From contig CM035351.1 of NCBI GenBank assembly GCA_020137815.1, positions 124,001-188,000 of the forward strand: a stretch of DNA of 64,000 nucleotides. The letters are read 5' to 3'. Below, piece by piece: positions 29,671 to 57,600 of the stretch. Position 1 is the first letter of the stretch. The number at the start of each line of letters is the position of its first letter. This DNA comes from Hormiphora californensis (lineage: Eukaryota; Animalia; Ctenophora). Position numbers and translations under genes: made by a program. The notes below the pieces were generated by a model. That model was not told the DNA's origin. It did not search any database and saw only the letters and a list, made by a program, of their open reading frames with translations.

Positions 29671-31080
29671 ATGGGCACCATGGGCCTTTCCGAGAATGCC
29701 CAGCTAGAAGCAGAAAAAGCTGTGTTTGAGAACATCAAGGCGTTTGTCAAAGAATCTGGGTTAACGACAGACAGTTTCTTTTCGGACACCCTTGCTTTTG
29801 CTAAAATAAAGATAACTGCGGCAGATGGGACCCACCTCAAAACATTTGATCTGACGGAGCTGCTACTTGCCGATGGTGTGGCACAGATACATTTTGAGGA
29901 TACTGATAGGGACATCAACTTACTGATGAATATCGGAAGCAGCGAAATTAGGGACCACATCCTGGATGGTGATACACATCAACTGTGGAAGGATAACATT
30001 GAGCAAAACATGTTGATTGACATGTACAACGCTTCATACTCGATGTCATTTGTGTGGACCGATGGTACAGAGTCCTTTCGTCAAAACGACAAGATGATCC
30101 TGCGAACGTCGGTGCTCATCATTTGTGCCCTTGTATTGGGGTTTCTTTCCATCAGAGATTTGTGGAAGCATTATAGGAAGACCCCCGGTAAGTTACTGAG
30201 GTATGTGAGATGTTTTCGAGAAGGATGGCTGGTGTCAATAGCTTTCCTCAGCTTCATATCTCATGTCGGTAACTTGCTTCCCTCACTCGGGAAGTCCTTC
30301 TCGTGGCTTAAAAAGGTCACACGGACGATCGATTTTATCACCTTCTACGAGGGAGCATCACTCAAGTTTTTTACCTGTTGCATCTACATTTTCCAGACTG
30401 TGATGGTAGTGTTTCCATTCTACTTTCGATCCAACAAGTCTAAGCTATTGTTGACAATGGCCAACACGATGACTGGAGTTGCGGTTACCTTGGTTACCAT
30501 ACCTCTGCCAGTTATAGTGGGATACATTAAGATCACGAGGGTATCCAGTTGCAATGATGTCGCTAACCTTAGCCAGCACGTTCAAGTAACGAACGCCATT
30601 CTATTTGCAATATTTGTCGTTGGTGCCTCTGTAACAAGTATGGCATATATGCTGATGTACTGGCTTTCCAATAGGAAGGAGGGCGATGAGGTGCAGGTTG
30701 CTAGGCAACAGAATGCAGAAAACACTGAGGAGACGCTTCTAAAGACGATCGTGGAAGCAGTGACAAACATCGTTCTGATATACTACACAGTGCAACATCA
30801 TCTTGACATCGCAACATTCCACAAGCAACGATCCAAGGTGACTGACTGTATATCTGTCGATCCAGTGTTTTCTACCGTGGCCACCCAACCGGCTAGCTTT
30901 GATGCTCTCTTGGCTCAGCAGGGAGTCACTGCTATTATTTGCTCGATAGTGCCTCGTATTCGCAAGTTACTCAAGAAGTTTTGGGTCAGAGGTATGGTTA
31001 CAGGAGACAAAGGTGACGAGGGATCAGGTGATGGCATATCAGTTCAACAGAGTTCAGATACTACCCCGCCGAACAATTAA
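29671..31080 (+). CDS. Intronless 469-aa multi-pass membrane protein, probably a divergent 7TM/GPCR-like receptor
   Basis: Long ATG-initiated ORF; ~140-aa hydrophilic N-terminus followed by about seven hydrophobic segments; TM3-end QTVMVVFPF in place of DRY. Confidence 0.72.
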   Translation: MGTMGLSENAQLEAEKAVFENIKAFVKESGLTTDSFFSDTLAFAKIKITAADGTHLKTFDLTELLLADGVAQIHFEDTDRDINLLMNIGSSEIRDHILDGDTHQLWKDNIEQNMLIDMYNASYSMSFVWTDGTESFRQNDKMILRTSVLIICALVLGFLSIRDLWKHYRKTPGKLLRYVRCFREGWLVSIAFLSFISHVGNLLPSLGKSFSWLKKVTRTIDFITFYEGASLKFFTCCIYIFQTVMVVFPFYFRSNKSKLLLTMANTMTGVAVTLVTIPLPVIVGYIKITRVSSCNDVANLSQHVQVTNAILFAIFVVGASVTSMAYMLMYWLSNRKEGDEVQVARQQNAENTEETLLKTIVEAVTNIVLIYYTVQHHLDIATFHKQRSKVTDCISVDPVFSTVATQPASFDALLAQQGVTAIICSIVPRIRKLLKKFWVRGMVTGDKGDEGSGDGISVQQSSDTTPPNN

Positions 31081-37265: not shown

Positions 37266-37969
37266 AAAAGGGCCTATAAAAACCAAGATTGAGGGGGTCG
37301 CACCAGGTGTCTATATGTCACCAAAAGGAAAAGGGCCTATAAAAAACTTGATCCTCCGCGGATCTGTCAGGCCAATGCTCTGACCACAGTTCTCGCGGGC
37401 CAATGCTCTGACAGCCGCGGATGACCTTTAGACCTTTGTCATGGATCTGTCAGAGCATAGGCCTGACGGCTGACCCTATTCGAGAACTGTGGTCAGAGCA
37501 TAGGCCTGACGGCTGACCCTATTCGAGAACTGTGGTCAGAGCATTGGCCTGACAATTAGGATAAATTGGTCATGGTCTGTAGTTCGTAGTCGTAGAGAGC
37601 AAGGAAAGATTGAATAATAATAATATTAACTGTCCAGAGCTGCGCAGAGCTGCGCAGAGCTGTGTTTTGCTCTAGATTCTTCTATCTACTATAGACTAGA
37701 TCATAGATTGTCTTGTCTAATCGATAGGGCATTAACACAGAATCACCGAGATAGATGGAGGGTTAATATCTTTTCTAGCTTAGCAGGATCTCTACGCTAC
37801 GAACTGCAGTACATACCGTGACAAGTTAGCGAAGCTAATGTTGTTAACAACAATAGCTTCGCTAACTGGTCACGGTATGTACTGCAGTTCGTAGAGAAAG
37901 GTGTATGGATAACAATGTTATCAATCCACTTTCTCTCCCTCTCCTAGCTCCTGTCTCCTGGGGTTATAA

Positions 37970-39397
37970 TGTAGGACTGGGTGTGACCCCGAGAGAGTGC
38001 AGACTCGCAGTGAGAATGCCCATCTCTGTGTAGCCTGGGTAGGACTGTAAAAACCCCAGGGTGGCTAGGTTGTGTGGCCACTGCTACACTCCTACCGGAC
38101 TACCTATAGTCCGTACTCCAAAAGCTCCCGTATCCTTAGGATTTAGCATTTGTATACACATAATATGGGCCAAGGCATGCACTGCGAATGACCCAATGGA
38201 GACCACTATGCAATGTTTCCGAAAGCCAGCCCCCATTCCGTACCGTTTCCAACGCGATGGCGAGCACGGTGTTTCCCATAGAAAACACCGAGCTCTAAAA
38301 CATAACTCATGTATTTGAGGGGCGTGAATCCCTTGCCTGCACGCAAACCAATGATAAAAACATAAAGCCCATGAATACACGTATTTCAGCCTGTAAATAT
38401 AATACTCTCGCACTCTCTTCTACATCACTCTCTCACTCGCTCCTCTACATCACTCTCTCACTCTCTTATCTACATCACTCTCTCATTCTCTTATCTACAT
38501 CACTCTCTCACTCACTCACTTCTCTACATCACTCTCTCACTCACTCCTCGATCTCACTCTCTCCTGGCCCCTATACCACTGCATAACGCCTCCTTAGTTA
38601 GCCCAACAAGCCCAAGCCCGAATCACAAGCAAACTGAGTCAACCCGATCAGGTGGCGGTCTAATGACTGAGAGACCATTGCACAATGTAGCCTGTCGGGG
38701 AAGACCCTCCGACACATATGGAGACCATGTTGAGCCCGTCAGATGACCATGGCCTGATAGCCAAGCAACTCTCCGACCTGAGCAAGTCCCAAGCAGAAGT
38801 GAGGATTTCACCCCTCGCTTCCGAGTTTTGTTACGTGCGCCTGAAGGCGGGGAATCACCCCTAATCACGTGCTAACTGCCCCGTCCCCGATTGGCCAATT
38901 ACCGCGTGTGCCGTAGGGGAATAAGCAAAGGAGGGGAATTACGCATTGTCCTAACGCAGGTCACGTGACCCGAGCCTCTCGCGGAACCAACTTGCTAACA
39001 GCCGATGAGTCGCCCGAAAAAACCTAATTACGATTATGCCCGCTAAAGGATTATTGTCCGCACCTAGTTAGCAAGAAACTTATCATGTAGCCCACGGAGT
39101 GATGGCACCCCTGGTACAGCTAATGGTTTTCCCGGGAATTTCTCCCTGAAGCCCGCTTCTAATGGCCCAAGGCCCCTCTCCCCAACTCTGACTCGTCTCT
39201 CTCTCTGTCTCTCTCTTTGCACTTTATCCTCAAAATAACTCAAAAAATAGTAACTCCATTACGGCCCTCTGTATCACACTCTCTTCCCATTAATATCGTG
39301 AAATAAAATATTAATAAAAAACACACCAAATATATATAACACACTAAACATATATAAGTATGTTTGCCCGGCCTAAATGTAGGTTTACCGCCCTACA
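37970..39397 (-). repeat. 3' LTR (1428 bp)
   Basis: TGTAGG...CCTACA; direct repeat of 52215-53642, with identical ORF-track translations. Confidence 0.97.
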
Positions 39398-39412
39398 TAC
39401 CCACCCCCCCTG
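39398..39412 (-). other. Polypurine tract
   Basis: Minus strand AGGGGGGGTGGGTA immediately before the 3' LTR. Confidence 0.8.
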
Positions 39413-39465
39413 ACAAAATGGAGTTTTTATTTTTTCTCCACACTTACAGCATAAGCCCTTTGTCC

Positions 39466-41766
39466 CTATTTGTCCGTGGCTGCACTTATGGCTGGTGGCG
39501 TCTTACTCAACCGAGGATATAAGGAGGCCGTAAAAGGGATCACTGGTGCCGATGCTGGTGTGCCCGTTTTGACAGCCTGAGAGCCCCCTTTTAGCCCCGA
39601 GTCCCCTTTCCCCAATGTGAACGCTTTCCCGAATGCCCGAACCCCAGTTGTCCGAACCGGTGCCGTGTCCCCCTCCGGAAGCCCCTGCCGCTCCTCCTGG
39701 CCGGCCTCCACAGGCCCGGAAATCTGCAGCGTCCTCCATCCGCGTAGTTCCGCCTTGTATCTTCCCACCCGCGCATTCCAATGACTACATGCTATGAGGC
39801 CGAATGATATGACATTCAATGCTATCCCGATCAGGCTGACTATATCCAGCCATCCCCACTCTCCTCCTTCCTCCCGAACCATCCGAACTGCCCAGGCCAG
39901 ATCCTCTTGGGTTTGTTCCTGTTCCGTCAGCTGCTTAGCCAGTCTGGTGACATTGCCTGTGTCCAATACCCTCGAGGTTGCCTGCAGATGCTCCTCCCAA
40001 GCCTTGACGTCGGGTAGCTGTAGCTCCTGGTGCAGTGCTACCTCTCTGCTAGACGCCATCATCCTGTGATTAATCATCAAATATGAATAATCAAGCCATG
40101 AATAGAAGCCCGTCCGATTGCTTTCGATTTCCTGGAACGTAAGTCCGCCCTGGTTCCCCGCCTGGATGCCCCTAACCGGTGTTTCACTGAAGACGAGGGC
40201 TCCGGCTACTGTGAAGACTGTGCGGTCCTCACATACGGCCAATTTAGATTTACACTCTCTTCTCCCGTTGAGGCACATTGCCGGAACGTGTTCTTCTACA
40301 GCATTGCCGTGAGTTGGTCTAAGACAAATCTTTAATAATGCGTCCCTGTCGTAACACCCGTCGCCTGGTCTGACCTCATAAAATCGGTCCCCGATGCGAT
40401 ATACTTCATCGGCCATTTCAAAAAGTAGACAGGTGTGGTTAACCTTGATGCCCACTTGTGCCACCGAATACCTCGGATACACGCTGCCCGGCTGTAACAG
40501 AGGAACTGTCATCACAAAGTGGAACTTCCAGCTGAAATCATTTCTCTGCATGCCCATCAGCGTCATTTTGCCCAAAGTATAAATGGTTTCGGGCTGCCCG
40601 ATAAAAATTGAGCCCTGGAAAACCGGATTTTCCTGCACCAACCTCTCCAAGCTTGCCAATTTTAGGAGTTCCGGCAGAACCCCTATGGTTAACTCGTTGG
40701 CCAAGACCCCCGATAGTATGGTACGTGTATGTCGTTCCCATTGTCCAATCTTCCTCTCCAGTGCAGGCTGGTATGATAGCCAGCTCACATCACAAGCCAT
40801 TGCCTTTAACTCCCCTTCGAACCCCTGGAACAGTTCAATCACATCCCTGTTGAATTTTAGCTGGTGTTCAAACTGCCGTTGTGCTGTGTTCGCAAACTCT
40901 GCAAACTGTCCCCTCAGCTCGCGCAGGTGTTTCCTCATCCGTATTCCCTCCCATAATGTAGCTCCTAGCCCCACCACTGGAAGTGCCATGCCCACCGCCA
41001 ACAAGCTACGTTTCTCGTGCCCGGTGCTGCCCTGTTCCTCGCCCCCTAATTGGTACGCCTTTTTTAACGTATCAAAGTTATTCAGAGACGTCTGCCATAA
41101 GGCCTCCTGATCCGCCTCTGTCCGCTCCCTAAAACCTGCCGCCAGGTCCGGCTCATCGTAGTGCTCGCGGCATCGGTCCTCGACCACTGTCCATTTCTTG
41201 AGATTCAAAGTCTGCCATGTTGCCCACTGTCGTCCTTGTAGGTTTGCGTTGTCCAGGATATCCCTGTCTTCTTGCTTGCTTTCGCGATAATCTTTGAAGT
41301 TAACTCGACACTGTCCCTCCGATTCCCGGAATGCACAGTTTTCGCCCTTCATCCGAATGCACCATTGTATGCACTTGGTCCAATTGTCCGTTAGTTCATC
41401 GTTCTGGAGCCCGTTTAGTTTAATCAACAACGCCGTAGTGCCGAACCGCTGTCTGTCCTTCTCCTGCATCTTTTCTACCCACTCCTCATCTATCCTGCAT
41501 TTTTGCCACCAGCTGACCCTACACAAACCCACTGTTGGCCAAGTTGGAATCGGTAAGTCGATAAAAAGAGAAGCGAAGATACTGTCCCCACCGCTGCCCA
41601 GGAAACCCACGGGCTGCAAGGCGACCCCCAAGTCTGTCATAACGAGTGGCTCCGTTGAGAGCTCAAGTTGTCTGTGATCCATGCCTGCTGCGCCCACCTG
41701 CCTGCCCGCCAACCCACTCAGCACTGCCACATAAACACATACAACCGACGCTACTGATGCTGCCAT
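39466..41766 (-). CDS. env: Envelope glycoprotein, class I fusion (F-type) architecture, 766 aa
   Basis: Signal peptide; HEKR followed by hydrophobic fusion peptide SLLAVGMALPVVGLGATLW; heptad repeats; Cys-rich region; N-glycosylation sequons; TM WLDIVSLIGIALNVISFGLIA; located between pol and the 3' LTR. Confidence 0.88.
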   Translation of the reverse strand: MAASVASVVCVYVAVLSGLAGRQVGAAGMDHRQLELSTEPLVMTDLGVALQPVGFLGSGGDSIFASLFIDLPIPTWPTVGLCRVSWWQKCRIDEEWVEKMQEKDRQRFGTTALLIKLNGLQNDELTDNWTKCIQWCIRMKGENCAFRESEGQCRVNFKDYRESKQEDRDILDNANLQGRQWATWQTLNLKKWTVVEDRCREHYDEPDLAAGFRERTEADQEALWQTSLNNFDTLKKAYQLGGEEQGSTGHEKRSLLAVGMALPVVGLGATLWEGIRMRKHLRELRGQFAEFANTAQRQFEHQLKFNRDVIELFQGFEGELKAMACDVSWLSYQPALERKIGQWERHTRTILSGVLANELTIGVLPELLKLASLERLVQENPVFQGSIFIGQPETIYTLGKMTLMGMQRNDFSWKFHFVMTVPLLQPGSVYPRYSVAQVGIKVNHTCLLFEMADEVYRIGDRFYEVRPGDGCYDRDALLKICLRPTHGNAVEEHVPAMCLNGRRECKSKLAVCEDRTVFTVAGALVFSETPVRGIQAGNQGGLTFQEIESNRTGFYSWLDYSYLMINHRMMASSREVALHQELQLPDVKAWEEHLQATSRVLDTGNVTRLAKQLTEQEQTQEDLAWAVRMVREEGGEWGWLDIVSLIGIALNVISFGLIACSHWNARVGRYKAELRGWRTLQISGPVEAGQEERQGLPEGDTAPVRTTGVRAFGKAFTLGKGDSGLKGGSQAVKTGTPASAPVIPFTASLYPRLSKTPPAISAATDK

Positions 41767-42805
41767 AAAACGTACTTTTTCTGCTAAAACGAGGCGTGGT
41801 TAGAATTATTTCAATAATCTTCGGCTCTGGCACACATTTTGGATTATATTACTCTCACATATTTTGTCAAAAACTTATCTCTCCGATATGCGCTTCTAAG
41901 TTTTTATAGACGGGATGGGCACATACCGTCGTCTCACCCCCCCCTTGAAAAGACGCCTTTGCAGAAAAATGACGTTTCTGTAACCGCTCCCAATACGCAT
42001 TTTCGTTTAACCTTTCCCATACCTCCATAACCACACCCCAGGTGCCTGCGCCACCTTGTTTACGTCTCCCCCTGATTATATTTCCACCGTCCGTTTCTAT
42101 GAACATTCCTCCCATTTATCTACAGTACAATATCAATATTTGTATAATTTTAGGCACCTATGCATATTTACGGCTCCCCCGCCGTCCCCCGGTCGACCGC
42201 CGTGCCCCCGTTTAAGGTCTACATCCATCAGCTTTGAATTCATCTCCCACCGTCCGTAATTTAATATGAATGAGGTCGGGCGCTACTCCGATCCCCCTCT
42301 AATGCGTTTTCTGGCCGTCCCAACCCTGGCCTATCCCAATAATTCCCACCACATGCTTAGCTACCAACCGACCAATCCAGCCAACTAGCCAGCATGCCCC
42401 AATTTTCGCGCACGGCATTATTGATGTGTCGGGATTTGACACACCCCCACCGATAGGTTGGTCATACCCACGTTTTACCTTTTCCTGGTACCCCGTTTTA
42501 ATAACCAACCTATAGGGGTGGATAACTAACCTACAATAGTTCAGCACGTTTTGTCCGCGATGCGCTGATTACATCCATGGACAAAACTCTAAAGAGGATT
42601 AGAAACCCGATCGCATATATGCTAGTTTCCCAAATTTCTTGGGAGAGGTGATAAACCTTCTGTGTGCCAGGACCCAAAATAGCACTACAGTCGAAAACGC
42701 ATTAACAAAGCTGATATAGGTGAAAACAGGAATATGCATATATGTATGATATGTATAATTGTACAAGTTGAGATAAAATTCCACACACGAATGATAAATA
42801 CACAT

Positions 42806-45800
42806 TCAATTGACCGAGTACTGATATCTCACGGGTTTTTTAATAACACGTTTAGAGCGTCTTAATAAACCATCCCTATGAATCCCCACCTGTCCCGGTC
42901 CCAAGTCTGATCCGTCATCTGTTTTCATGTCGGCCCTCCAAGACTTGCTATCCTGTTCCCGTCGTTTGCTTGATTTTTTAATCTTCTCCCCCTTGTTTTG
43001 TCTTCCCATCACCCACACGGGTCTGTTCGACTCGTGTTGTCTACCTGTAAGTCTCCAACCTGGTTCTTGCCAGGATCGGCCAATTATTGGCTTAGTGACT
43101 TCCCCCCGGTCATGTAAGCCTTCCCTATACCCCGTGTTTCTCAGTGTCAGTGGTGGTTCGTCATGTGGTGTCGTTAGATGTTCGCTGGTTGATGTTCCCA
43201 GTGGTGCGGTTCCCCCTTCGCCTATAGTGACCTTCCTTCCGAGTGGTTCCTTTGTGTCTTCTCCCTCAGAGCTATCCTCCTCCTCTGACGAGCTGTCACT
43301 AAAAGGTTCATCCTCTGTAGGATGTCCTGCTCTGTCAGTATGGAGGAGTGAGCTCCCCGGGTTAGAGTCCTTAGTTTTACGCAAATTTACACCAGGCTTC
43401 ACCTTACGTAGTGCATCAAAATGAACTACCTCGTGTTTGCCCGTCTCTGCATCTTCCACGATGTAATTTTGTTCATTTATACATTTTGTGATTACCAAGG
43501 GACCTTTATACGTGTTTCTGAACTTTCGGTAATCCCTTATTTTTGCCGGCAAGGGCTTATACAACAGAACGTGGTCACCCACGCTATACGTAGTAAAGTT
43601 TACATTTTTATCGTAAGCCCGTTTTTGTAATTTCATTGCATGCCCCGTAGTGGCACGCACCAAATCAAAGACCTCCCTGAATTTATAATAGACCGCTGAT
43701 TTATACTGCTCTTTGTTTTCATAGAACTGAGACTGAGTGGTATCGAAGATAGCATCAGCCGCAGTTCTCACCGTGTAAGAAAACATTAGATCGTTGGCCG
43801 AATACTTAGTTGTGGAGCTTACCGCGTTGTTAAGAGCAAAGACAGCTACCGGTAATTTCTCCACCCATGTATCGGGTTTTTCCCCTACCAATTTTTTAAG
43901 AACCGCCACAACGTCTCTATGACGTCTTTCCACCTGCCCGTTGCCCTGTGGGTGATACGCCGTTGTACGCACCTTATTAATTTGTAAAACTTTATAAATT
44001 TCCTGTATGACCTTAGAGCTGTGCAAATTTGACGCTTGATCCGACAGCACGGTTTCCGGTACTCCAAAAATGAAGCACCATTTTTCCATGAATGCTCTAG
44101 CTATATTTTTGCTGGTGGCCTCTACCAAAGGACTCGCCATGAAGTATTTGGTGAATCGATCAATCATAGTAAGAATGTATTTAGGAATGCCCGGGGCCGG
44201 TGTAAACGGCCCTACTATGTCAATAGCTACACATGCGTTTGGTCTACCGACCTGAAACTGTTTAAGCGGTGCTCTCGGTTTTTTGAAGTATGCTTGGTTA
44301 TTCAGAAAGCACGCTTTACAGCACTGGCAATAATGCTCTATTTCTTTGTGCATGTTTGGCCAGTAGTAAGATTTGAGTACGTTATCTGTCGTACTCTTGC
44401 TGCCCATGTGCCCTGCGGTTGCGTTACTATGATAAGCCTTCAAGATCTCGTCGCGTTGCTCTTCCGGGACACAGATCAAGAGCCCAAATTTCTTAGATTT
44501 TGGCGTGTAACGTTTGTAACAGATCACATCGTTCTGGTTAATTATCAAGGATTCAAATTTGTTCCAATATTTTCGCAACTTAATGGTGAACGCCTTAGCC
44601 CATCTTCTGAGAGGTTTTTCTCCTTCTACCAGCCATTTCCGGACTTCCGTCAGCACGGTGTCCCCTAATTGTGATGCCCTCCATTTACCTGCCCTATCTG
44701 ATACCGAAGCCGTGGGATTATCCCAGGACCCAATGGGGTCCTTTTTTTTAATTTTTACCGCGGCGACGGCCGTCTCTTTTAAATCGGTGGCCTGAGAATT
44801 ACTGATATACCAGTCGTATAGCACGGACGAATGGGTGGGAGCCCGTACGTCTCTACTTAATAGGTCAGGGAGTTGCATCTGAACTCCGCTTTTGTGGACC
44901 AGTTCAAAATCATAGTCCGCCAGGGCTATTATCCACCTCAACATAACTGCCGAGGTAGTTTTTCTCAAGAATTTGTCCCCGGTGATCGCCTCCATGTCGA
45001 TCACAGCCTTAAATTCGGCGTTGATGAGGTAAAAGCGCCACTTCTCTATGAAGTATTTCAGGGCCAGGAACTCCCTTTTGAAACTTGGGTACTTTGACTC
45101 TGTTTCTGAAAGCACCTTGCTCCCATAGGCTATAGGCCTAAATTTCCCGTCTATTTCATGCCCTATGACGCCCCCTAAAGCAACCATACTTGCATCCGTG
45201 TACAGCACCATTTTCTTGGTGACGTCCGGAAAGATCATCACCTGCGGGCTACAGAGAGCCTCCTTCAGTTTCTCTACACTGGCCCTAGCTTCCTCCGTCA
45301 TTACGAAGTCTGGCCCTTTCAATGTGTCTGTAAGCCCTTTGGCCAGCAGTGCAAATTTCGGAATATGGGTCCTAAACCAAGAACAGGCCCCTAAAAACCG
45401 TTGCACTTGCTTCCGCGAAGCCGGCATTGCGATGTTCCTAACTGCTTCCGTTTTTTCCCCATCAGTCTCGACGCCGTTGACTGATAGGAACATGCCCAAA
45501 AATTTTATTTTCCTCTGAAAAAGTTGGCACTTCTTTGGATTCAGAGTCATACCCGCTTGGGTCACCCGGGTAAAAACCTCGTCTAAAATGGCACACATTT
45601 CCGTGAAAGTGGAGGCGCTCGCTATTATATCGTCGATGAAGCCAGCCGCCTTGTCCCCTTTCATGCCCTGCAAAATTTTGTCTAACAAGGCCTGATATGT
45701 ACTGGGCGAGCCTTTTAATCCCAAAGGCATCCTAACGAATTCGAAATGCCCGATGCCCGGAATGGTGAACGCCGTTCTATCCCTATGCTCAGGTGCCATT

Positions 45801-47071
45801 CCAATTTGAAAATAACTATCCTTGAAATCCAATGTGCTAAAAAGTTCTTTACCGGCCCAGTTGGCCGTTATCGAGTCTACTGCAGGCACGGCTGCATATG
45901 ACCTTTTAGAATGTTTGTTTAATTCTCGGTAATCGATTAGTAAGCGCCTTTTGCCCCCTCTCTTCATGAGAATTGCTGGGGACGAGAACTCACTAGAGCT
46001 CCGTTGTATAATGCCCGCATCCAAAAGTTCAGCCACTTCCTCTTCACAATCTTTGAAAAGATGGAAAGGCACCCTCCGATATTTGCAACGAATTACGGTA
46101 TCCCGTTCTGCCAGTGGGACGGTGTGCTGTATTAACGTCGTTAGTCCCAGCTGGTCCCTACCGAGGGCGAATACGCCCTCATGTTTACTCACTAGCTGTG
46201 TGGCCAAAAGTTTTTCATCTTCTGATAAGTTTGTGTTCTCGTTGAATTTCAAAGCCTCTAGAATTCCGTCTAGATTGGATTTGTCACCGTCTATCTGGAC
46301 GGTTTGTATTCTGTTTAAAGTTTCAATAACTTCTAAAGCTGTGCCCAGACAGACCTGCGGGGATATCTCCCAGTCTCCCCCTTCCCATTCATTGCGAAAC
46401 GGGAGACTGCAATACCCATTCTTTACTTCCATAGCCCATGAACAATTTGTGTCGCCTCCTATGTCTTCACTAGGGAACAGGGAGAAAACTCCCGTTATGT
46501 TTTCCCTTTCGTTAGCCTCGTTTTGCAAACGAGCCTCAGCCCAAATCATGCCTTCTGCTGGCACACAAATGGACTTTATTAGATGTACGTTTAGCGCCCT
46601 TTTGCCTTTTTTCTTACTCCCCGCTAGAAGAGGAGCCTTAAAATCAGGTCCAGTGACCAAATTTAAGTCAAAGTTTATTGTTGCCCTGGCTTCTCCCAGC
46701 CATTCGGTACCCAGGATCACGTGATCCCTTAGTTCCTTGACTACCAGGAAGTTTGTTACGAAGGGTTTGTCCCCTATTTTAAAAGGAACTTTATTTGCTC
46801 TATACAAAACGGGAAGGGAGATTCCCGAAATCCCCGTTATTAAGACGTGCTCAGCCGCCTTATCCGCTACCTTCTGTCTAAGGAACCACTCCTCACTACA
46901 TAAATTCCTAGCCGCACCACTGTCAACCAGCCCGTGAACTGTCCCATCCCTACCCATGATCCTAACGAACACTTGCCCCCCACATGAATTTATTTCGAGA
47001 AGAGAAACGTCCTTACACTCAGACCACTCCGACTGTCCGATTAACACCTCTCTTCTCTCTATTCGTTTTTT
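42806..47071 (-). CDS. pol: Pol polyprotein (protease-RT-RNase H-integrase), Ty3/Gypsy order, expressed by -1 frameshift from gag
   Basis: LVDSGA protease; LDFKDSYFQ and FIDDII RT; YTDAS RNase H; H-H-C-C and D,D,E integrase (IDIVGP, SDQ, GQVER); KGP motif. Confidence 0.97.
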   Translation of the reverse strand, partial: KKRIERREVLIGQSEWSECKDVSLLEINSCGGQVFVRIMGRDGTVHGLVDSGAARNLCSEEWFLRQKVADKAAEHVLITGISGISLPVLYRANKVPFKIGDKPFVTNFLVVKELRDHVILGTEWLGEARATINFDLNLVTGPDFKAPLLAGSKKKGKRALNVHLIKSICVPAEGMIWAEARLQNEANERENITGVFSLFPSEDIGGDTNCSWAMEVKNGYCSLPFRNEWEGGDWEISPQVCLGTALEVIETLNRIQTVQIDGDKSNLDGILEALKFNENTNLSEDEKLLATQLVSKHEGVFALGRDQLGLTTLIQHTVPLAERDTVIRCKYRRVPFHLFKDCEEEVAELLDAGIIQRSSSEFSSPAILMKRGGKRRLLIDYRELNKHSKRSYAAVPAVDSITANWAGKELFSTLDFKDSYFQIGMAPEHRDRTAFTIPGIGHFEFVRMPLGLKGSPSTYQALLDKILQGMKGDKAAGFIDDIIASASTFTEMCAILDEVFTRVTQAGMTLNPKKCQLFQRKIKFLGMFLSVNGVETDGEKTEAVRNIAMPASRKQVQRFLGACSWFRTHIPKFALLAKGLTDTLKGPDFVMTEEARASVEKLKEALCSPQVMIFPDVTKKMVLYTDASMVALGGVIGHEIDGKFRPIAYGSKVLSETESKYPSFKREFLALKYFIEKWRFYLINAEFKAVIDMEAITGDKFLRKTTSAVMLRWIIALADYDFELVHKSGVQMQLPDLLSRDVRAPTHSSVLYDWYISNSQATDLKETAVAAVKIKKKDPIGSWDNPTASVSDRAGKWRASQLGDTVLTEVRKWLVEGEKPLRRWAKAFTIKLRKYWNKFESLIINQNDVICYKRYTPKSKKFGLLICVPEEQRDEILKAYHSNATAGHMGSKSTTDNVLKSYYWPNMHKEIEHYCQCCKACFLNNQAYFKKPRAPLKQFQVGRPNACVAIDIVGPFTPAPGIPKYILTMIDRFTKYFMASPLVEATSKNIARAFMEKWCFIFGVPETVLSDQASNLHSSKVIQEIYKVLQINKVRTTAYHPQGNGQVERRHRDVVAVLKKLVGEKPDTWVEKLPVAVFALNNAVSSTTKYSANDLMFSYTVRTAADAIFDTTQSQFYENKEQYKSAVYYKFREVFDLVRATTGHAMKLQKRAYDKNVNFTTYSVGDHVLLYKPLPAKIRDYRKFRNTYKGPLVITKCINEQNYIVEDAETGKHEVVHFDALRKVKPGVNLRKTKDSNPGSSLLHTDRAGHPTEDEPFSDSSSEEEDSSEGEDTKEPLGRKVTIGEGGTAPLGTSTSEHLTTPHDEPPLTLRNTGYREGLHDRGEVTKPIIGRSWQEPGWRLTGRQHESNRPVWVMGRQNKGEKIKKSSKRREQDSKSWRADMKTDDGSDLGPGQVGIHRDGLLRRSKRVIKKPVRYQYSVN

Positions 47072-48426
47072 GATTCCCCTGCTTTATTAGCGGTAGGTGT
47101 CGAGCCTTCTTGGAAGGAGACTGCTCGAGGTCTCACATGCCACGGGTTGGGTTGAGCTTCCGCGACCCCACCTTGCTGCTGTCCCTGTCCCATCCAATGG
47201 TTATGCCGTCCTCGTCCCTGCCCGTTTCCGTTGAATCTGCCTCCCCGTGAAGGACTGTAGCCCTGTTGCCGATTGGGGTTGTATGAGCTGAACTGTGGGT
47301 TTGGGCCACCCGTGCCGCACTGCATGCACCTGTTGCGCCGGGCGAAATTATGAAACCCACATTCCTCGCAGAGCCAGTCCCCCACCTGTAGTTTGGCCTC
47401 GAACCTCCGCCCGTTGTACCCTCTGTTCTGTCCGCCCCACTGCCGAGCCTGCCCCTCCCATGGCCGGTGCTGCCTCTCCCCAGTTTGGCGAGGCCCCTCA
47501 TACTGTGCCTGTAGTGGAGCTCCTCCCTGGTTTGCCCGTGCCTCCCCTTGCCCTGCCGCCAGTACCGTGACCTCATTAAGCCCAGACACGTCGTTCCGTG
47601 CCGTTAAAGCCTTCTCCTTCCGGTCCATGTTTTCCACCAGGTCCGCGAAGGAGTCCCTCTCCAGCTTTTCCGCTATCTCACACGCGATCTTGTCGTCCCT
47701 GGCCCCGATCCATAGCGTGTCCTTCAGGAGCTGCTCCAACTCCGGGCCCTCCACGTCCCCCAGATCCGCTGCCTCCCTAAGTAGCCGATCCCCAAAGTCC
47801 CTAACCGTCTCCTCCAACTGCTGCTTCAGGGCCCGGAACCGTGAAATGGCCACCACTTTCAAATCGGGTGGGGCCAGCACTAAAACTACCCGCTCCAGGT
47901 AGGCCTCCCACGATTTGGCCTCGGACGCCTTCTTGTCCCCCCGTACTTTCAACGAGGACACTTCGTCCAAGTACGTCGGAAATATCTCACGTGCATCCTC
48001 TGTGGATATCTTGGCTGCCCTCCTATAGCCCTCCCATGCGTCCACGAATGCCCGCACGCTTTTGCCCTTCTTGAACGGCTCCGGCTTCCTCGCCAATTGA
48101 TGCCTCTTGGCCCTCCCCGTGCCCCACTCCGTCCCAATACCTCCCCTGGCCCCGACTGCCTCTGTTTTGATCCACTCCTCCTTCTCCTCCCGTAAGCCCT
48201 GTATCATCCTCTTGGCCCCCTCCAAGTCCCGTGCGTACCTTTCCTCATTCTCAGCTATCGCCTTGCCCGCCTGCTTCCTAACCTCCTCCACCTTCTCCAT
48301 GCCCTCCCCCATTCCCCTTGCCCGCGCCCTTTCCTGCTCCCGGAGCACCAGTTGACACAGCTCCTCGCCCTGGCCCTCGTTTAAGTTCAGTCCTTGAACG
48401 AATTCGTTGATAGAGATGCCCTCCAT
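47059..48426 (-). CDS. gag: Gag (coiled coil, capsid-like region, Gly/Arg/Gln-rich NC with RanBP2-type zinc finger)
   Basis: Directly upstream of pol; capsid-like PEPFK..., QQLEETVRDFGDRL major-homology-like motif; likely ATG at 48426. Confidence 0.9.
   Translation of the reverse strand: MEGISINEFVQGLNLNEGQGEELCQLVLREQERARARGMGEGMEKVEEVRKQAGKAIAENEERYARDLEGAKRMIQGLREEKEEWIKTEAVGARGGIGTEWGTGRAKRHQLARKPEPFKKGKSVRAFVDAWEGYRRAAKISTEDAREIFPTYLDEVSSLKVRGDKKASEAKSWEAYLERVVLVLAPPDLKVVAISRFRALKQQLEETVRDFGDRLLREAADLGDVEGPELEQLLKDTLWIGARDDKIACEIAEKLERDSFADLVENMDRKEKALTARNDVSGLNEVTVLAAGQGEARANQGGAPLQAQYEGPRQTGERQHRPWEGQARQWGGQNRGYNGRRFEAKLQVGDWLCEECGFHNFARRNRCMQCGTGGPNPQFSSYNPNRQQGYSPSRGGRFNGNGQGRGRHNHWMGQGQQQGGVAEAQPNPWHVRPRAVSFQEGSTPTANKAGESKNE
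47065..47071 (-). promoter_or_regulatory. -1 ribosomal frameshift slippery heptamer A AAA AAC
   Basis: gag ends ...TCA AAA AAC GAA TAG; the -1 frame is open into pol (RIERREVLIGQ). Confidence 0.85.
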
Positions 48427-48770
48427 GTTGTGTTCACTACAAGGAATAAGAGAAGAGGTTAGCAAACATAATAAACATATATATCTGAGGAGTGGGGTTG
48501 TAAAAGGGAAGAGGGAATCTGTTCTTTCAGGTGGGGGTTCAAGGGAAAAAGGGAGGGGAAATGTAACACTGAAAACACACGATTTTCCTCACTGAAAGTT
48601 AAAACTGATACGTTATAGATACATAAAAAGAAATACATAGAAAGTCCTGGACTCCAATGTTCCGGCCCGCTGATCCGTCAAACTCTGGTCCGGCCCACTG
48701 ATCCGGCTCGTGCTTCCCTTGATGAGTTCCAGTCCACTCCTGAATCGGCCGGCCTCACCTCCATCCCCTT

Positions 48771-49415
48771 CTACTCGGTTCCAAGGCCGCATATGGAGGC
48801 GATATGACCGTACGTTAAACACCGGGAACACTCGATCATTTGTTGAATGCGAGGCGGCTTTACGTTGTAGCGACCGAACGCCTCGTGATCCCGGCTGATG
48901 GTTTCCCGGCTGTCGGCCATTTCACGACGGTGCATACAGCGCACCCATGTGGCGTTTGTTGCCATCCTCCGGCCCTCCCTCCGCATCCTGGCATCCCTCT
49001 CCTCCCGCCTCCTCCGTGCCTCCACCGCCCTCCTCTCCCGTTCCTCCGCCTGAATCCTCTCCCGTGCCGCCGCCCTTGCCCTCATCAACCCCGCCACCTT
49101 GCCCCTCCTCGCCTCCTCCTCCAGCCTCAACGCCGCCAACTCCGCCCCTAACCGCCGATCCTCCGCCATCCAATCCTCCATCCGCCCCTCCTCCTGCCTG
49201 CCCGTCCCCGGCCCCTCCGACACCTGCCCAACCTCCTTCGCCTCCTCCGCCGGCACGCCCACTGCCTCCACCTCCACGCCTTCGTCCACCCCCTCCAGCT
49301 CATCTGCCCAGCTACCAATGTCCTCCTGCCACGTCTTCGTCACCACCACCGCCGCCGTCGCCGCCGCCTTCGCATCCGACACCTCCTCCGCCCGTTGGAT
49401 TTTGCTCGTGTTCAT
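48771..49415 (-). CDS. Accessory ORF-B, 214 aa: acidic N-terminus, Arg/Glu coiled coil, C-terminal CCHC zinc knuckle
   Basis: ATG preceded by a splice acceptor; CSRCLTYGHIASIC fits C-x2-C-x4-H-x4-C. Confidence 0.75.
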   Translation of the reverse strand: MNTSKIQRAEEVSDAKAAATAAVVVTKTWQEDIGSWADELEGVDEGVEVEAVGVPAEEAKEVGQVSEGPGTGRQEEGRMEDWMAEDRRLGAELAALRLEEEARRGKVAGLMRARAAARERIQAEERERRAVEARRRREERDARMRREGRRMATNATWVRCMHRREMADSRETISRDHEAFGRYNVKPPRIQQMIECSRCLTYGHIASICGLGTE

Positions 49416-49555
49416 AATGGTACTATAGAGGGAGAGAGAGAGAATATTAGATCAGCTGAAAGGTTACACGACACGCTAGGGGAAAGAATACATACAAAAA
49501 AAAGGGGGGGGGGGAAAGGGAGTGAGATAAAAACGCTGAGAGAGTATACACAAAT

Positions 49556-49557
<2 letters not shown>

Positions 49558-49592
<35 letters not shown>
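49558..49592 (-). other. Internal poly(A) tract (~35 nt) on the element's sense strand
   Basis: T run on the + strand ~70 nt downstream of the ORF-A stop. Confidence 0.9.
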
Positions 49593-49593
<1 letters not shown>

Positions 49594-49663
49594 ATAAAAG
49601 ATACAAGAGAATAAAAGGAACGATAACAAATATCCCTCAAATACAGCCATTATTTCCTCCCTC

Positions 49664-50242
49664 CTATTCCGGCACGTCCACCCTGGATATTAGGGCCGCC
49701 CGTTTGTACCCAAACCTTATGGCCCACCGTGTCAGCTTTAACAAAGCCCCCTGCCCAAAGTCCACTGCGGCTATGAGTTCTGTGGCCCCCAATTCCCCTC
49801 TCACCCAGTAATGATTGGCCGCCGCCACCCGATGCCTCTTGGAGTCCACCCCACCCCGTGCCCGGCCCATTATCTCCTCCCAGCCCCACGGGTCGCTATA
49901 CCCCTCTATCTCCATAATGGCCTGGCCCACCCTAACATCTATCCAGGCCCCCTTCAAGTCCTCCCAACAAAAATAACATAACCGGGCCCCCATAATGGCC
50001 TCTACCTCCGAATCCCAGATCTCCCTGCACCCCCTACGTGCACACTCTTCCGGCCCTGCCCTAGGTAAGTCCGGCTCCCCCAACGGATACCTCCGGCCCC
50101 CCACCAAGTCGATGACCGGCAGCTCCCCATCCTCCTCCGGCAACACCTCCGACCTCTGCACCTCCCGCGCCTCCACCCGCGCCTCCAGCCGTTCCTGTGC
50201 CCGCACTACTGATATCCGTCGCCGTTTACTGTCTTGTGACAT
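49664..50242 (-). CDS. Accessory ORF-A, 192 aa, unknown function
   Basis: ATG-initiated, same strand as gag/pol, preceded by a splice acceptor; N-terminal KRRR; C-x4-C and C-x2-C pairs. Confidence 0.65.
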   Translation of the reverse strand: MSQDSKRRRISVVRAQERLEARVEAREVQRSEVLPEEDGELPVIDLVGGRRYPLGEPDLPRAGPEECARRGCREIWDSEVEAIMGARLCYFCWEDLKGAWIDVRVGQAIMEIEGYSDPWGWEEIMGRARGGVDSKRHRVAAANHYWVRGELGATELIAAVDFGQGALLKLTRWAIRFGYKRAALISRVDVPE

Positions 50243-52195
50243 AGTGTTGCGCTATATGGGACAGTCGGAGGGTTTAGTGGAATGTCCCACAATTTTTTTA
50301 TAAAACCCGGTGTGAACCCGTGAACCCCATGAAGTACCCGTCTTTACCCATCACAATATAACTAAACTCAATGTAGTGGTGTAACTAAACAGTATGAAGA
50401 TGGTGCAGTGATAAACTGTTTTCCACTATGTTTTTCCAAATCCGGTTTACCTACGCAAAGCCAATCATAACTAAAACAAATGCTTGATAATAGTACGAGG
50501 ACCTCTAACTATAATTTCCAAACTTGTTCGAGCTCGCGCCGTCCCCCTCCCGGAAGTTGTTGCACGCTACTCACCTTTGTAACCCACTACAGCACCATGG
50601 TTGATTTGCTGTCCAGAGTGGGCTACCGCAGCGCCTTTACACAACTGTTCACTGAAACCGCGGTCCAAAGTTTCTTCTCGACAGTATTTCATAACACATA
50701 ATATTAATAATGAACGAATCAATTGATGCCATTGCTACCTCTCTCTGGGCTCCATCTCGGTCGCTGCGCAACCTTGATTTCGCCCGAGTGAGGTAACACA
50801 GTGTGAGCAGACCCATGTGCCATTAAACGCGCATCTTAACCTCGGCCCATACCTCAACCCGCACCCCAGCCCTTAACCTCCGACCCTACCTCCGTCACCC
50901 GCCCTTACCAACGTGCAATTTGGCACAGCAAACTCTAGACTCCGACCTTACGGTCCAAATGTCGAGTTCGCTGAGAGAGAGATTAGCGCTCATGAGTCCG
51001 CACACTATGTAAATAGCACCAAAAACTTCGATAAAACAGAGAGAATATTTAAATACATAGCCCGTTGCCTTCCCATAATAATAACAACCCGCCACATTCC
51101 TTATATAACATCATTCTCCCCCCACACAATTGCTAAATCATTATACATTGCAAGCAATATAAGCCAAATTGTGGCTGCACACCTTACCCTAAACAGTCTG
51201 TCTTTTCCTTTCTAATACGTGCCTAACATAAACCAAATTTCAGTCTTTTACTGTACTACTAAGGAATTTTTAGGGGTGAGTGAATGGGTGTCTTACCATG
51301 CAGCATGACTTCATGGCTGCCTCTGAACCAAGTGGGAAACCTTTGCCCTAGAGTTTTGTGGGGAGGTCTAAACATGTAAAATAAAATGCAAGTAACGAAT
51401 TCAACGGTGAGGGTATTTCTAGTCACTCCCGCAGATGGGGCACCAACATAAGGCAACTGCTGTTTCAAGCTCCTAGACTGCGTAGTTTTGATATTGTTAT
51501 CATGTAAAAATCTCACGTCCCGTCCCCCTGAGTGTATCTCCACCCCCTGAATCCTGATTAACCCATACTCACATACCCCACATATAAAAAGTCAAGTAGT
51601 AACAGAACAGGCCGCCAAGAGAGAAATTATTTCATGATGATGTGAGAACGATGCAAGGATAATGGGGAAACGAAATGAGAATGTCATTATCACTGGGTGG
51701 TGGAAGTATAATTGGAGAAGTGAGAACGAGGTGATAACGATATCAGGATGGTGCTATCACTGTGTGCGTGCACTGAACTGTGAGAACGAGGTGATAATGA
51801 TGTACTACCATTTATCAGGAAGATGTGTAAGTAATGTGAATAGGGTATGAGAGAGATGTGAAAATTTAACAGGGATGTGATGATGATATCAGGAAAATTT
51901 AAGGGGCTTGGCTGCCGTTCTGCTGTTACCCAGACTTGAGAACCTGATACTACAAGCATAAAAAATCATTCCCTGCCCGTAATCATATAAATCAAACTAC
52001 CTAAATGACCAATTAACAAACGCGGGCAGACCTGCAGAGGTAGTAAACGAAAAGCTGATTTTATAGATTGTTCTACTCATAATCTCCACTCAACTCCTGT
52101 GCGCTCTCTCCGAATGAATAATTGGCTCCTCACCAATAACCGGCCCAACTATGCAAGCCCCGTGTATACAAACATGAACTCAGATTCATTAATCT

Positions 52196-52211
52196 GGTTG
52201 TCGTCGGACCA
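52196..52211 (-). other. Primer binding site (tRNA not identified)
   Basis: Minus strand TGGTCCGACGACAACC starts 3 nt after the 5' LTR. Confidence 0.7.
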
Positions 52212-52214
52212 TAA

Positions 52215-53642
52215 TGTAGGACTGGGTGTGACCCCGAGAGAGTGCAGACTCGCAGTGAGAATGCCCATCTCTGTGTAGCCTGGGTAGGACTGTAAAAACC
52301 CCAGGGTGGCTAGGTTGTGTGGCCACTGCTACACTCCTACCGGACTACCTATAGTCCGTACTCCAAAAGCTCCCGTATCCTTAGGATTTAGCATTTGTAT
52401 ACACATAATATGGGCCAAGGCATGCACTGCGAATGACCCAATGGAGACCACTATGCAATGTTTCCGAAAGCCAGCCCCCATTCCGTACCGTTTCCAACGC
52501 GATGGCGAGCACGGTGTTTCCCATAGAAAACACCGAGCTCTAAAACATAACTCATGTATTTGAGGGGCGTGAATCCCTTGCCTGCACGCAAACCAATGAT
52601 AAAAACATAAAGCCCATGAATACACGTATTTCAGCCTGTAAATATAATACTCTCGCACTCTCTTCTACATCACTCTCTCACTCGCTCCTCTACATCACTC
52701 TCTCACTCTCTTATCTACATCACTCTCTCATTCTCTTATCTACATCACTCTCTCACTCACTCACTTCTCTACATCACTCTCTCACTCACTCCTCGATCTC
52801 ACTCTCTCCTGGCCCCTATACCACTGCATAACGCCTCCTTAGTTAGCCCAACAAGCCCAAGCCCGAATCACAAGCAAACTGAGTCAACCCGATCAGGTGG
52901 CGGTCTAATGACTGAGAGACCATTGCACAATGTAGCCTGTCGGGGAAGACCCTCCGACACATATGGAGACCATGTTGAGCCCGTCAGATGACCATGGCCT
53001 GATAGCCAAGCAACTCTCCGACCTGAGCAAGTCCCAAGCAGAAGTGAGGATTTCACCCCTCGCTTCCGAGTTTTGTTACGTGCGCCTGAAGGCGGGGAAT
53101 CACCCCTAATCACGTGCTAACTGCCCCGTCCCCGATTGGCCAATTACCGCGTGTGCCGTAGGGGAATAAGCAAAGGAGGGGAATTACGCATTGTCCTAAC
53201 GCAGGTCACGTGACCCGAGCCTCTCGCGGAACCAACTTGCTAACAGCCGATGAGTCGCCCGAAAAAACCTAATTACGATTATGCCCGCTAAAGGATTATT
53301 GTCCGCACCTAGTTAGCAAGAAACTTATCATGTAGCCCACGGAGTGATGGCACCCCTGGTACAGCTAATGGTTTTCCCGGGAATTTCTCCCTGAAGCCCG
53401 CTTCTAATGGCCCAAGGCCCCTCTCCCCAACTCTGACTCGTCTCTCTCTCTGTCTCTCTCTTTGCACTTTATCCTCAAAATAACTCAAAAAATAGTAACT
53501 CCATTACGGCCCTCTGTATCACACTCTCTTCCCATTAATATCGTGAAATAAAATATTAATAAAAAACACACCAAATATATATAACACACTAAACATATAT
53601 AAGTATGTTTGCCCGGCCTAAATGTAGGTTTACCGCCCTACA
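52215..53642 (-). repeat. 5' LTR (1428 bp)
   Basis: Direct repeat of 37970-39397. Confidence 0.97.
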
Positions 53643-54613: not shown

Positions 54614-57600
54614 ACTGGACAGCTGTTATAGAGAGGGAGGTGAAGTTATTCTGGGACCTGGAGGGAACACCTCTCCAGATAAAGACGGACTCTTCAGTTG
54701 GCAGTAACAAAAAGATCTATGTTGAGCTGTATAGTAATAGTGGCAGTTTCCAAAGTGATGTAGTCGTGAAGTTTAGTTCTACAGTGGAGTATAGGATCTA
54801 CGATTGCACCAGCGACTGGCCAGATCTGCCAGTCCAGCCCTCAGGGGTGGAGGACAAGGTCTGGACGATCAGTAAAACTGAGAGCCATCTAACTATCGAG
54901 TGTAATGGTTTAACTCTCCTGAACTACAAGTTTTCAGACGGGAAAAGTAGCTGCGCTTCACTAATGAGCGTTGTGCAGAAAATAGCCTTTCACGATGAGG
55001 ACACAGCATCTGACTTCTACAGAGCAGGTATATCCACTAGATATGTGAATGGCGCAACCTATAGGGGGGGTTCCAGCCTATTTTTTTGTATTTTTTTGTA
55101 TTTATTTGTACGGACCATACATAAAAGTATCAAAAATTCCTGTTTTTTCCATCATACTATTATTAAAGCAAATAGGGAAATCCCATGTCCCGTTTTTTTA
55201 ACCAAATATGGCACAAAATTCCTGGAAATGGCCTTTTGCACGTGTTGTCCCTAGAGGGACCCTGGCAACCTGCCAGCTTGAGCCTTAAACTGCACGTGCA
55301 TCCTTGATTCATCTTTCTGCCGGTTGTGTGATTGATCGTTTGCTCGATTTGATCTGTTCACCACGTTTCGTGAACATGACTACTGAACTTCAACACAATC
55401 GCCAGCGAGTTTGGAGGAGCCATATCTCCCAAACTGGCGCTGACGCCTATAGACTACGTGATAGAATCCTACAAAAGAGGTGATTATTATTCAAAAAAAG
55501 TTGTCAACACACGTAATAACAAAGTATCAATGGCATTAATAAGAAATGATAGTAATACGTGAAAGTATTTTGCCAATGTACTCCTCTCCTTCATAAAATA
55601 CTTCAGGACCTGGCAAAAGAGGACCCGTGGTTTTTTGTTGAAAGAATCCCTGTGGTTAATTTACCTGATAAATTTACTGATTTTAAAAATTTCAAATGAT
55701 ACTACACTATTTGCTTAGTTTACTGTATGACCATCCCTGATATTCGCCCGTAGGGCGAGCGGGCTTACTAGTACAAACAATACAAAAAATACAAAAAAAT
55801 AATGAAGGATGTGGTCGGTAAGAAATTGCGATTCGGGAAAATTTCTCGCTTAGAAAATACGATTCGAGAAAATTTTCTCGGTAAGAAATTGCGATTCGGG
55901 AAAATTTCTCGCTTAGAAAATACGATTCGAGAAAATTTTCTCGTTAAGAAATTGCGATTTGGAGAAATTTCTCGCTTAGAAAATACGATTCGAGAAAATT
56001 TTCTCGGTAAGAAATTGCGATTCGGGGAAATTTCTCGCTTAGAAAATACGATTCGGGGAAATTTTCTCGGTAAGAAATTGCGATTCGGGGAAATTTCTCG
56101 CTTAGAAAATACGATTCGAGAAAATTTTCTCGGTAAGAAATTGCGATTCGGGAAAATTTCTCGCTTAGAAAATACGATTCCAGAAAATTTTCTCGGTAAG
56201 AAATTGCGATTCGGGAAAATTTCTCGCTTAGAAAATACGATTCGAGAAAATTTTCTCTGTAAGAAATTGCGATTTGGAGAAATTTCTCGCTTAGAAAATA
56301 CGATTCGAGAAAATTTTCTCGGTAAGAAATTGCGATTCGGGGAAATTTCTCGCTTAGAAAATACGATTCGGGGAAATTTTCTCGGTAAGAAATTGCGATT
56401 CGGGGAAATTTCTCGCTTAGAAAATACGATTCGAGAAAATTTTCTCGGTAAGAAATTGCGATTCGGGGAAATTTCTCGCTTAGAAAATACGATTCGAGAA
56501 AATTTTCTTGGTAAGAAATTGCGATTCGGGGAAATTTCTCGCTTAGAAAATACGATTCGAGAAAATTTTCTCGGTAAGAAATTGGGATTCGGGGAAATTT
56601 CTCGCTTAGAAAATACGATTCGAGAAAATTTTCTCGGTAAGAAATTGCGATTCGGGGAAATTTCTCGCTTAGAAAATACGATTCGGGAAAATTTTCTCGG
56701 TAAGAAATTGCGATTCGGGGAAATTTCTCGCTTAGAAAATACGATTCGAGAAAATTTTCTCGGTAAGAAATTGCGATTCGGGGATATTTCTCTCGCGATT
56801 TTGGCATGCTATATATGTAGCCGTGTGCGGCAAAAAAAAGGCCCCCCCTAGACCACCATAGTTGCCGATGTGGTGGAGAGCTGTAACTTGGCAGGGTTGC
56901 TCCACTATGTCTATCTTGATCCTGACAGAAAAATCAGAGCTCTAGCTCAAAATTCATTTTTTTGATAGGAATGAACATTGTCATTCATTCCAAGAAAAAA
57001 ATATTTTCGGTCCAGAATTCAAGCAATTATCTTTGGCCATCGATTAGCTTTCCAATGTGACCAAGATCATCTAAATTGGGCAACCACAAGAGACACAGTG
57101 TCATGTTTCTTAAAGTTAGTCAGGTCATGTGATCTTCACCGAATCGTTGATTATCCGGGATTGCTAATCGAGCCAATGGGCAGAGGAATCTCGTATCACG
57201 GCCGCTAATGAGGTATGTGTACCAATACAGGGTAATGTGATTCGAGGAAAGAGGACATTTATCAAAGAGCTACAGATCTCATGACCAATCAGCATCGTCA
57301 TCCCTCATTAGTAGCCGTGATACGTGATTCTCTACCACTTAGACCGATTCGTAATACTGAACACTCAACGATTCGGTGAAGATCACATGACCTGATTAAA
57401 TTTAAGAAAGATGACACTGTGTCTCTTGTGGTTGCCCAATTTAGATGATCTTGGTCACATTGGAAAGCTAATCGATGGCCAAAGATAATTGCTTGAATTC
57501 TGGACCGAAAATATTTTTTTCTTGGAATGAATGACAATGTTCATTCCTATCAAAAAAATGAATTTTGAGCTAGAGCTCTGATTTTTCTGTCAGGATCAAG

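Follow-up and report, generated by a model that had tools for sequence, protein, structure and literature searches.

The closest described systems are the F-type 'ancient errantiviruses' of Chary and Hayashi (eLife 2026, PMC13524379). The available text of that survey gives nine ctenophore elements, six of them with ENV_F, including two in Pleurobrachia bachei, so that F-type env is already on record for ctenophores and the family treated here, or a sister family, may already stand in the survey's table. The surveyed elements share with the present one a GAG-POL-ENV Ty3/gypsy layout with LTRs and an F-type Env. Errantivirus F is said there to comprise four conserved domains and to carry a 'highly conserved furin site', whereas the Env described here has HEKR at its cleavage site and adds an insert. 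The main text makes no mention of PAN/apple domains, ESCRT, late domains or the cytoplasmic tail, the insert may appear unlabelled in its figure of the F alignment, and its F structure sheet, as available, has no ctenophore element amongst the matches. A paramyxovirus-like F is likewise found on an LTR element of a non-insect animal in the bdelloid TelKA (PMC5408684); according to the available part of that article this F is about 600 aa long and has an RXXR site, and PAN is unmentioned there. Env-dependent budding has a precedent in the foamy viruses (PMC3705266, available text), but there PSAP is on Gag, whereas in the present element Gag has no such motif and the motifs are on the Env tail.

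Amongst viral proteins, the F proteins of RSV, hMPV, PIV5, HPIV3 and measles virus have the same fold, F2/F1 organisation, fusion peptide, HRA and HRB regions and cysteine pattern as the Env of this locus, at about 10% identity. Pneumovirus and paramyxovirus F proteins are short-tailed and lack the ~110 aa inserted behind the F2 cysteine, and paramyxoviruses use a separate attachment protein. The glycoproteins of lispiviruses and arliviruses give the best matches amongst viral models; the top five, 531-587 aa in length, are too short to hold the insert, judged by length alone.

The locus lies in a stretch of 64,000 nucleotides from the ctenophore Hormiphora californensis (the window). A complete Ty3/gypsy LTR element with env, an errantivirus as PMC13524379 uses that name operationally, occupies 37970-53642 on the minus strand (15,673 bp), with env as the third main ORF after gag and pol. 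Its two LTRs, 1428 bp each with TG...CA ends, are identical, and ATAA flanks both ends of the element as a 4-bp target-site duplication, indicating that the insertion is very recent. The ORF scan found gag, pol and env all uninterrupted, and the element is intact. The domain order of pol is PR-RT-RH-IN, as in Ty3/gypsy, with gypsy-type domains identified by Pfam. A spacer of ~1 kb separates pol and env. The parts of the element are as follows.

37970..39397, minus strand: 3' LTR, 1428 bp, TG...CA, matching the 5' LTR exactly
39466..41766, minus strand: env ORF, 766 aa, precursor of an F-type class I fusion glycoprotein, P0001 (ORF, profile, model, fold search)
42806..47083, minus strand: pol, with protease, RT, RNase H and integrase; open (ORF and Pfam)
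47059..48426, minus strand: gag, encoding both a RanBP2-type zinc finger (about 47311-47385) and a stretch rich in RGG (ORF and Pfam)
48771..49415, minus strand: accessory ORF upstream of gag, a charged helix with a terminal CX2CX4HX4C knuckle (sequence)
49664..50242, minus strand: second accessory ORF upstream of gag, 192 aa, with C-x3-C and C-x2-C (sequence)
52215..53642, minus strand: 5' LTR, followed by a TGG-starting site resembling a primer-binding site

Several features of this anatomy deserve mention in their own right. Gag has an unusual nucleocapsid module, in which the RanBP2-type zinc finger (Pfam E 6.5e-8) is followed by the RGG-rich stretch and no CCHC knuckle is present. The retroviral-type CX2CX4HX4C knuckle, usually found in Gag, is here on a gene of its own upstream, after a long charged helix (48771-49415). 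Neither accessory ORF obtained support from Pfam, the first having no significant match and the second none. The gag and pol frames overlap by 25 nt at 47059-47083 in the -1 frame, consistent with ribosomal frameshifting, and the stretch that separates the two upstream ORFs includes a long run of A on the minus strand (49559-49592). The second upstream ORF, gag and env each have an acceptor-like pyrimidine/AG stretch ahead of their ATG (for env at 41767-41790, where the putative stretch TTTTAGCAG lies ~15 nt ahead of the ATG), hinting at several spliced messages from the element.

Short-read and database searches added the following. One Logan short-read contig covers env completely with 1 differing letter and 0 gaps, from a run that is possibly the source sample. 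Runs X5 and X6, from another sample, gave contigs that span parts of the leader, gag and pol and little of env; being contig data, these are not informative on the presence of env. Contigs of another sample contain related copies of both upstream ORFs. A run presumed to be RNA yielded no match to the element between its LTRs, which speaks neither for nor against expression. A contig of run X3 tracks the left flank (37531-37970) to the LTR border and then continues for 37 more letters, and could represent an empty allele of a heterozygous insertion. RT-based scans returned 46 distant loci, none with a match to the env profile, the fetched RT relatives being 27-39% identical, and no env-bearing loci were found in metagenome and viral contigs. 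Elsewhere in the window are a tandem array of a 43-bp unit in about 190 copies (1-8200), a 63-bp array (55689-56933), and on the plus strand an intronless ORF of 469 aa with several hydrophobic segments and no significant Pfam match (29671-31080), possibly a divergent multi-pass receptor.

The env sequence alone matched no Pfam family at E up to 1 and no PDB sequence, and its single-sequence fold prediction reached a pLDDT of only 33.7. Relatives were collected by a HMMER scan of 1.84 billion representatives, which yielded 180, of which the best 150 were listed and 135 aligned; a word-index homolog search found 3 relatives, in both runs. The closest named relative amongst the matches listed is P0002, a predicted protein of Pleurobrachia bachei, 86% identical. 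The profile of the env family matched paramyxovirus and pneumovirus F proteins in the PDB with E down to 3.3e-11. An AlphaFold2 model of env (pLDDT 76.3, pTM 0.64) found RSV and hMPV F as its best PDB matches in Foldseek (E 1.2e-11), and VIA-align placed it on hMPV F with Z 15.2 and rmsd 6.1 over 376 aligned residues, its top 16 rows all being F proteins or foamy Env. Against the BFVD viral models the closest match was a lispivirus protein (E 8.5e-20), with baculovirus F at 1.3e-11, and the Atlas gave Baculo_F and Fusion_gly as leads at 0.84, which is lead level. The features of the protein are listed below.

41689..41766, minus strand: likely signal peptide, aa 1-26 (sequence; helix at aa 3-20 in the model)
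41152..41496, minus strand: F2 insert of ~110 aa (about aa 91-205), lying after the conserved cysteine region of F2 and ahead of the pre-cleavage helix; relatives with a short F2 do not have it
41308..41373, minus strand: PAN/apple-like core, C132-x3-C136...C144...C153 (profile and alignment; degenerate in the env copy)
41008..41019, minus strand: HEKR cleavage site, aa 250-253, with no basic residue at P3-P8 (alignment)
40942..41007, minus strand: fusion peptide, aa 254-275 (aligned with F fusion peptides)
40717..40968, minus strand: HRA region, aa 267-350, including C325 (model and alignment)
39868..40008, minus strand: HRB/stalk helices, aa 587-633 (model and alignment)
39787..39843, minus strand: transmembrane segment, about aa 642-660 (hydropathy and model)
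39544..39555, minus strand: ASAP, a non-canonical motif resembling P(T/S)AP, aa 738-741 (sequence)
39508..39522, minus strand: LYPRL, aa 749-753, fitting both ALIX-type LYPxL and YxxPhi (sequence; pLDDT under 50)

Env thus shows the characters of an F-type protein, namely a basic site with a hydrophobic fusion peptide after it, then HRA, HRB and a transmembrane segment, with head domains and a helical stalk. In the model long helices span 267-350 and 587-633, the cytoplasmic tail of 106 aa is disordered, and C325 in HRA is kept in 99% of the rows that cover it. The predicted fold is that of an F-type class I fusogen, a reading made secure by the profile, Foldseek and VIA-align. The same three comparisons bear out this designation in an earlier note on this DNA, whose fusion peptide, two heptad regions, transmembrane segment and tail of ~105 aa are likewise present; its signal peptide corresponds to a hydrophobic N-terminal helix at aa 3-20. 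By analogy with F proteins, refolding of HRA and HRB very probably drives fusion.

The cleavage site reads HEKR/S at aa 250-254, as it does in P0002, and HEKR does not conform to the furin consensus R-x-K/R-R. Amongst the relatives, 107 rows cover this position and 104 could be scored: Arg is found at P4 in 69 and is absent in 35, from which it follows that the furin consensus does not define the family, and 6, including the env query and P0002, possess a bare KR with no K or R at P3-P8. The nearest full-length relatives amongst the matches listed have RNKR, RRKR, REKR and RPKR. Given these sites and the 35 rows without P4 Arg, HEKR is best regarded as a derived, weak variant and not a unique one, and the proposal of a unique cleavage site was rejected on the 35 and 6 of 104. 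The dibasic HEKR that had been claimed in place of furin RxKR is accordingly real and non-canonical, but it is a minority variant and not exceptional. On the sequence of the site, the env precursor is likely to be cut at KR/S by a convertase of the kexin family that tolerates the missing P4 Arg, with F2 staying disulfide-linked to F1.

The length of the region before the cleavage site is bimodal amongst the aligned relatives, and side-by-side alignment places the ~100-115 extra residues of the long forms between the 'P...C' motif and the pre-cleavage helix. The C-x3-C..C..C pattern was identified in 37 of the 44 rows with at least 190 residues before the site and in 2 of the 53 shorter rows, both of which are N-terminally truncated long types. 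The PAN clan of Pfam matched 24 of 53 long-type proteins and none of the 42 short-type proteins scanned. The 24 comprise 14 of 35 at E up to 0.01 and 10 of a further 18 with the limit set at 0.05; 9 exceed the curated cut-off, and 3 of these 18 fall into the same 90% clusters as earlier rows. The top PDB sequence match of P0046, a weak one (E 0.011) that falls over the insert, is microneme antigen L2 (2yil), a cellular parasite protein and apple-domain galactose lectin; this match belongs to the insert of that relative and not to the copy in the window. These sequence comparisons make it quite likely that, in this family, the insert adopts an apple fold.

A phylogenetic tree of the F1 core was built quickly with IQ-TREE from 85 of the 135 rows, rows with fewer than 250 core residues or fewer than 85 residues before the site being dropped. 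The 43 rows that carry the insert fall together on one side of it, and all but one of the 40 short rows fall on the opposite side, so that 2 label changes suffice where shuffled labels need 27.7; the exception, P0098, is truncated inside the insert. The split has a support of 85, which is unstarred in this quick tree, and gain and loss of the insert both fit it. As judged from these sequences, the insert defines about half of the relatives (the 43 of 85 tree rows) and is well supported for the family and weak in the env copy. The short-F2 relatives P0061, P0064, P0080 and P0116 have a small cysteine-rich insert (4-7 Cys) in the same position, which suggests that this loop of F2 may repeatedly take up extra modules.

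The copy in the window deserves separate treatment. Its insert is homologous to the Pfam-PAN segment of the relatives, since a profile built without the query scored it at 12.3 bits, whereas the best of 2000 shuffles reached 8.9. Pfam gives no match for the insert and the window's protein stays below the PAN-clan cut-off, a more distant profile gave 3.6 bits, a score reached by 34 of 2000 shuffles, and the third core cysteine is shifted relative to P0003 (P0014 is without the first core cysteine). In the model this segment is partly helical (pLDDT 56-81), and whole-protein fold searches were filled by the F core. Because of the missing Pfam match, the weak distant score, the shifted cysteine and the partly helical model, the env copy may have lost the apple fold or its function. 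The PAN/apple-like WTKCIQWC..C motif reported previously is thus supported as a family trait, by the 24 PAN matches, and has no Pfam match in its own copy; of the points made in the earlier note, it is the one that gave the stronger result. The cysteines of the insert are kept in 72-100% of the rows covering them. Identity to P0002 is 76% in the insert, 93% in the F1 ectodomain and 73% in the tail; the faster divergence of the insert fits an exposed binding surface and relaxed constraint alike. A donor was not found: the Atlas returned no usable match for aa 80-215, and a search with the P0046 region found only itself.

The 'P...C' motif of the short forms aligns with paramyxovirus F2 at a place just ahead of the F2 helix, and its cysteine is presumably equivalent to that of RSV F, with the same F2-F1 disulfide. 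As the insert follows this motif and falls beside the loop that corresponds to residues 62-69 of RSV F, it is predicted to lie at the apex, where site O of RSV F (62-69, 196-209) is located on the trimer (PMC6922093, available text). From this sequence register, the insert probably occupies the membrane-distal apex of the trimer. Whether it binds a glycan or protein of the target cell, so that one protein both attaches and fuses, is an evenly balanced matter.

The tail had been described as ending PASAP...LYPRL, with reference to YPxL and P(T/S)AP motifs. 'PASAP' holds ASAP and not P(T/S)AP, and LYPRL at aa 749-753 is followed by 13 residues; ASAP in the Z protein of Tacaribe virus does not drive self-budding (PMC3509680, available text). 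In the 94 tails that possess a transmembrane segment and at least 25 residues, out of 135 rows, P(T/S)AP occurs in 4 against 0.33 expected and LYPxL in 3 against 0.05 expected from shuffles. With two short fragments added, giving 96 tails, PSAP occurs 5 times against 0-3 for its 11 permutations, and LYPxL 3 times against 0 for its 5 permutations, one of these three tails being the env query itself, picked after the fact. The PSAP tails are those of P0003, P0013, P0021, P0029 and P0147. P0003, the closest full-length relative with a different tail, has PSAP and then LYPNL in the same order in a tail that is otherwise unalignable, while the motifs are absent from P0004, P0012 and P0158 of the same clade and from about 90% of relatives. 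PPxY and the looser YPx(1-3)L are at chance in the 94 tails. P0002 was rejected as evidence of a loss of LYPxL, its last residues matching another reading frame of the window's tail. The conservation of LYPxL and PSAP amongst relatives, which the earlier note had proposed as a check, was not found, at 3 and 5 of 96 tails, although both exceed shuffles; on sequence counts the Env tail motifs are recurrent and enriched, not conserved. Gag and both accessory ORFs contain no P(T/S)AP, YPxL or PPxY, and because Gag has no late motif it is Env that would bring ESCRT to the budding site. Recruitment of ESCRT by Env via LYPRL, with PSAP serving in some relatives, is a tentative proposal, standing somewhat below even.

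The same residues admit a different reading, in which YPRL is an ordinary YxxPhi sorting signal, the precursor passes via endosomes and has its weak KR cut there by a cathepsin-type protease, and Env recruits no ESCRT. The henipavirus F tail has a YSRL endocytosis motif. Moreover, henipavirus F matures through cathepsin L cleavage (PMC6911215, available text), and in the present family YxxPhi is found in 50 of 94 tails, with 38.7 expected, and in 18 of the 26 tails whose P4 residue is not R, compared with 22 of the 51 in which it is (Fisher p 0.053). This association is weak, however, and the Fisher test ignores tail length and kinship; the site remains a conserved dibasic KR, and adaptin binding explains neither the Leu before YP nor the excess of PSAP. 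Endosomal processing of this kind is rather unlikely, and cleavage by a kexin-family convertase is preferred.

A second alternative, which is less probable again and must be called unlikely, keeps the F core as normal, regards the tail motifs as having arisen by chance in a disordered tail that evolves fast, and sees in this lineage's insert a decaying shield or spacer without binding. It is consistent with the lack of tail motifs in most relatives, with the lower identity of tail and insert than of F1 to P0002, and with the missing Pfam match in the env copy, but is at odds with the counts of PSAP and LYPxL against their permutations and with the retention of the insert cysteines. The idea that the env ORF is a fusogen domesticated by the host, or a product of misassembly, could draw on the absence of a Pfam match for env alone, but env is located between pol and a 3' LTR identical to its partner, the element has a target-site duplication, and one short-read contig reproduces env, leaving this explanation exceedingly improbable.

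The reading preferred here, with odds slightly better than even, is that of an intact F-type Env of a recent Ty3/gypsy element, whose PAN/apple-like F2 insert, predicted to be at the tip, would serve as a built-in attachment module and whose tail may recruit ALIX in place of Gag. We infer its roles in processing, attachment and budding as follows. Env would be made from a subgenomic message, enter the secretory pathway, be cut at KR and be presented as a trimer that bears the apple-like insert at its tip. There the insert would engage a ligand on a cell surface, and refolding of HRA and HRB would merge the particle with a cell next to it, probably one of the germline if Drosophila errantiviruses are a guide. 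Env's long tail would couple to capsids and may recruit ALIX.

A clade-wide PAN/apple insert, and sporadic late-domain motifs on the Env tail in an element with a Gag lacking them, appear to be undescribed, the tail part being suggestive. The literature search, which covered openly accessible text, returned no relevant report of a PAN/apple domain in retroelement envelopes, and amongst the titles it listed none dealt with late domains in the Env tail of an errantivirus. The wider proposition that a deep F-type clade captured an apple/PAN domain at the apex, and that in some elements the Env tail took over the ESCRT late domains from Gag, leaving release to be driven by Env and not by Gag, with this element as an intact example of both, is doubtful. 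The available text of the 2026 survey gives the mode of transmission outside Drosophila as unknown (PMC13524379), and that of a 2012 review lists the use of ESCRT by errantiviruses as unknown (PMC3383448). An apple-like domain that is small and separable and is present on about half of the relatives offers a handle on target-cell recognition, and an element whose sole late-domain-like motif is on Env offers one on ESCRT use. If the proposition is true, a class I fusogen would have gained its own receptor-binding module by domain capture.
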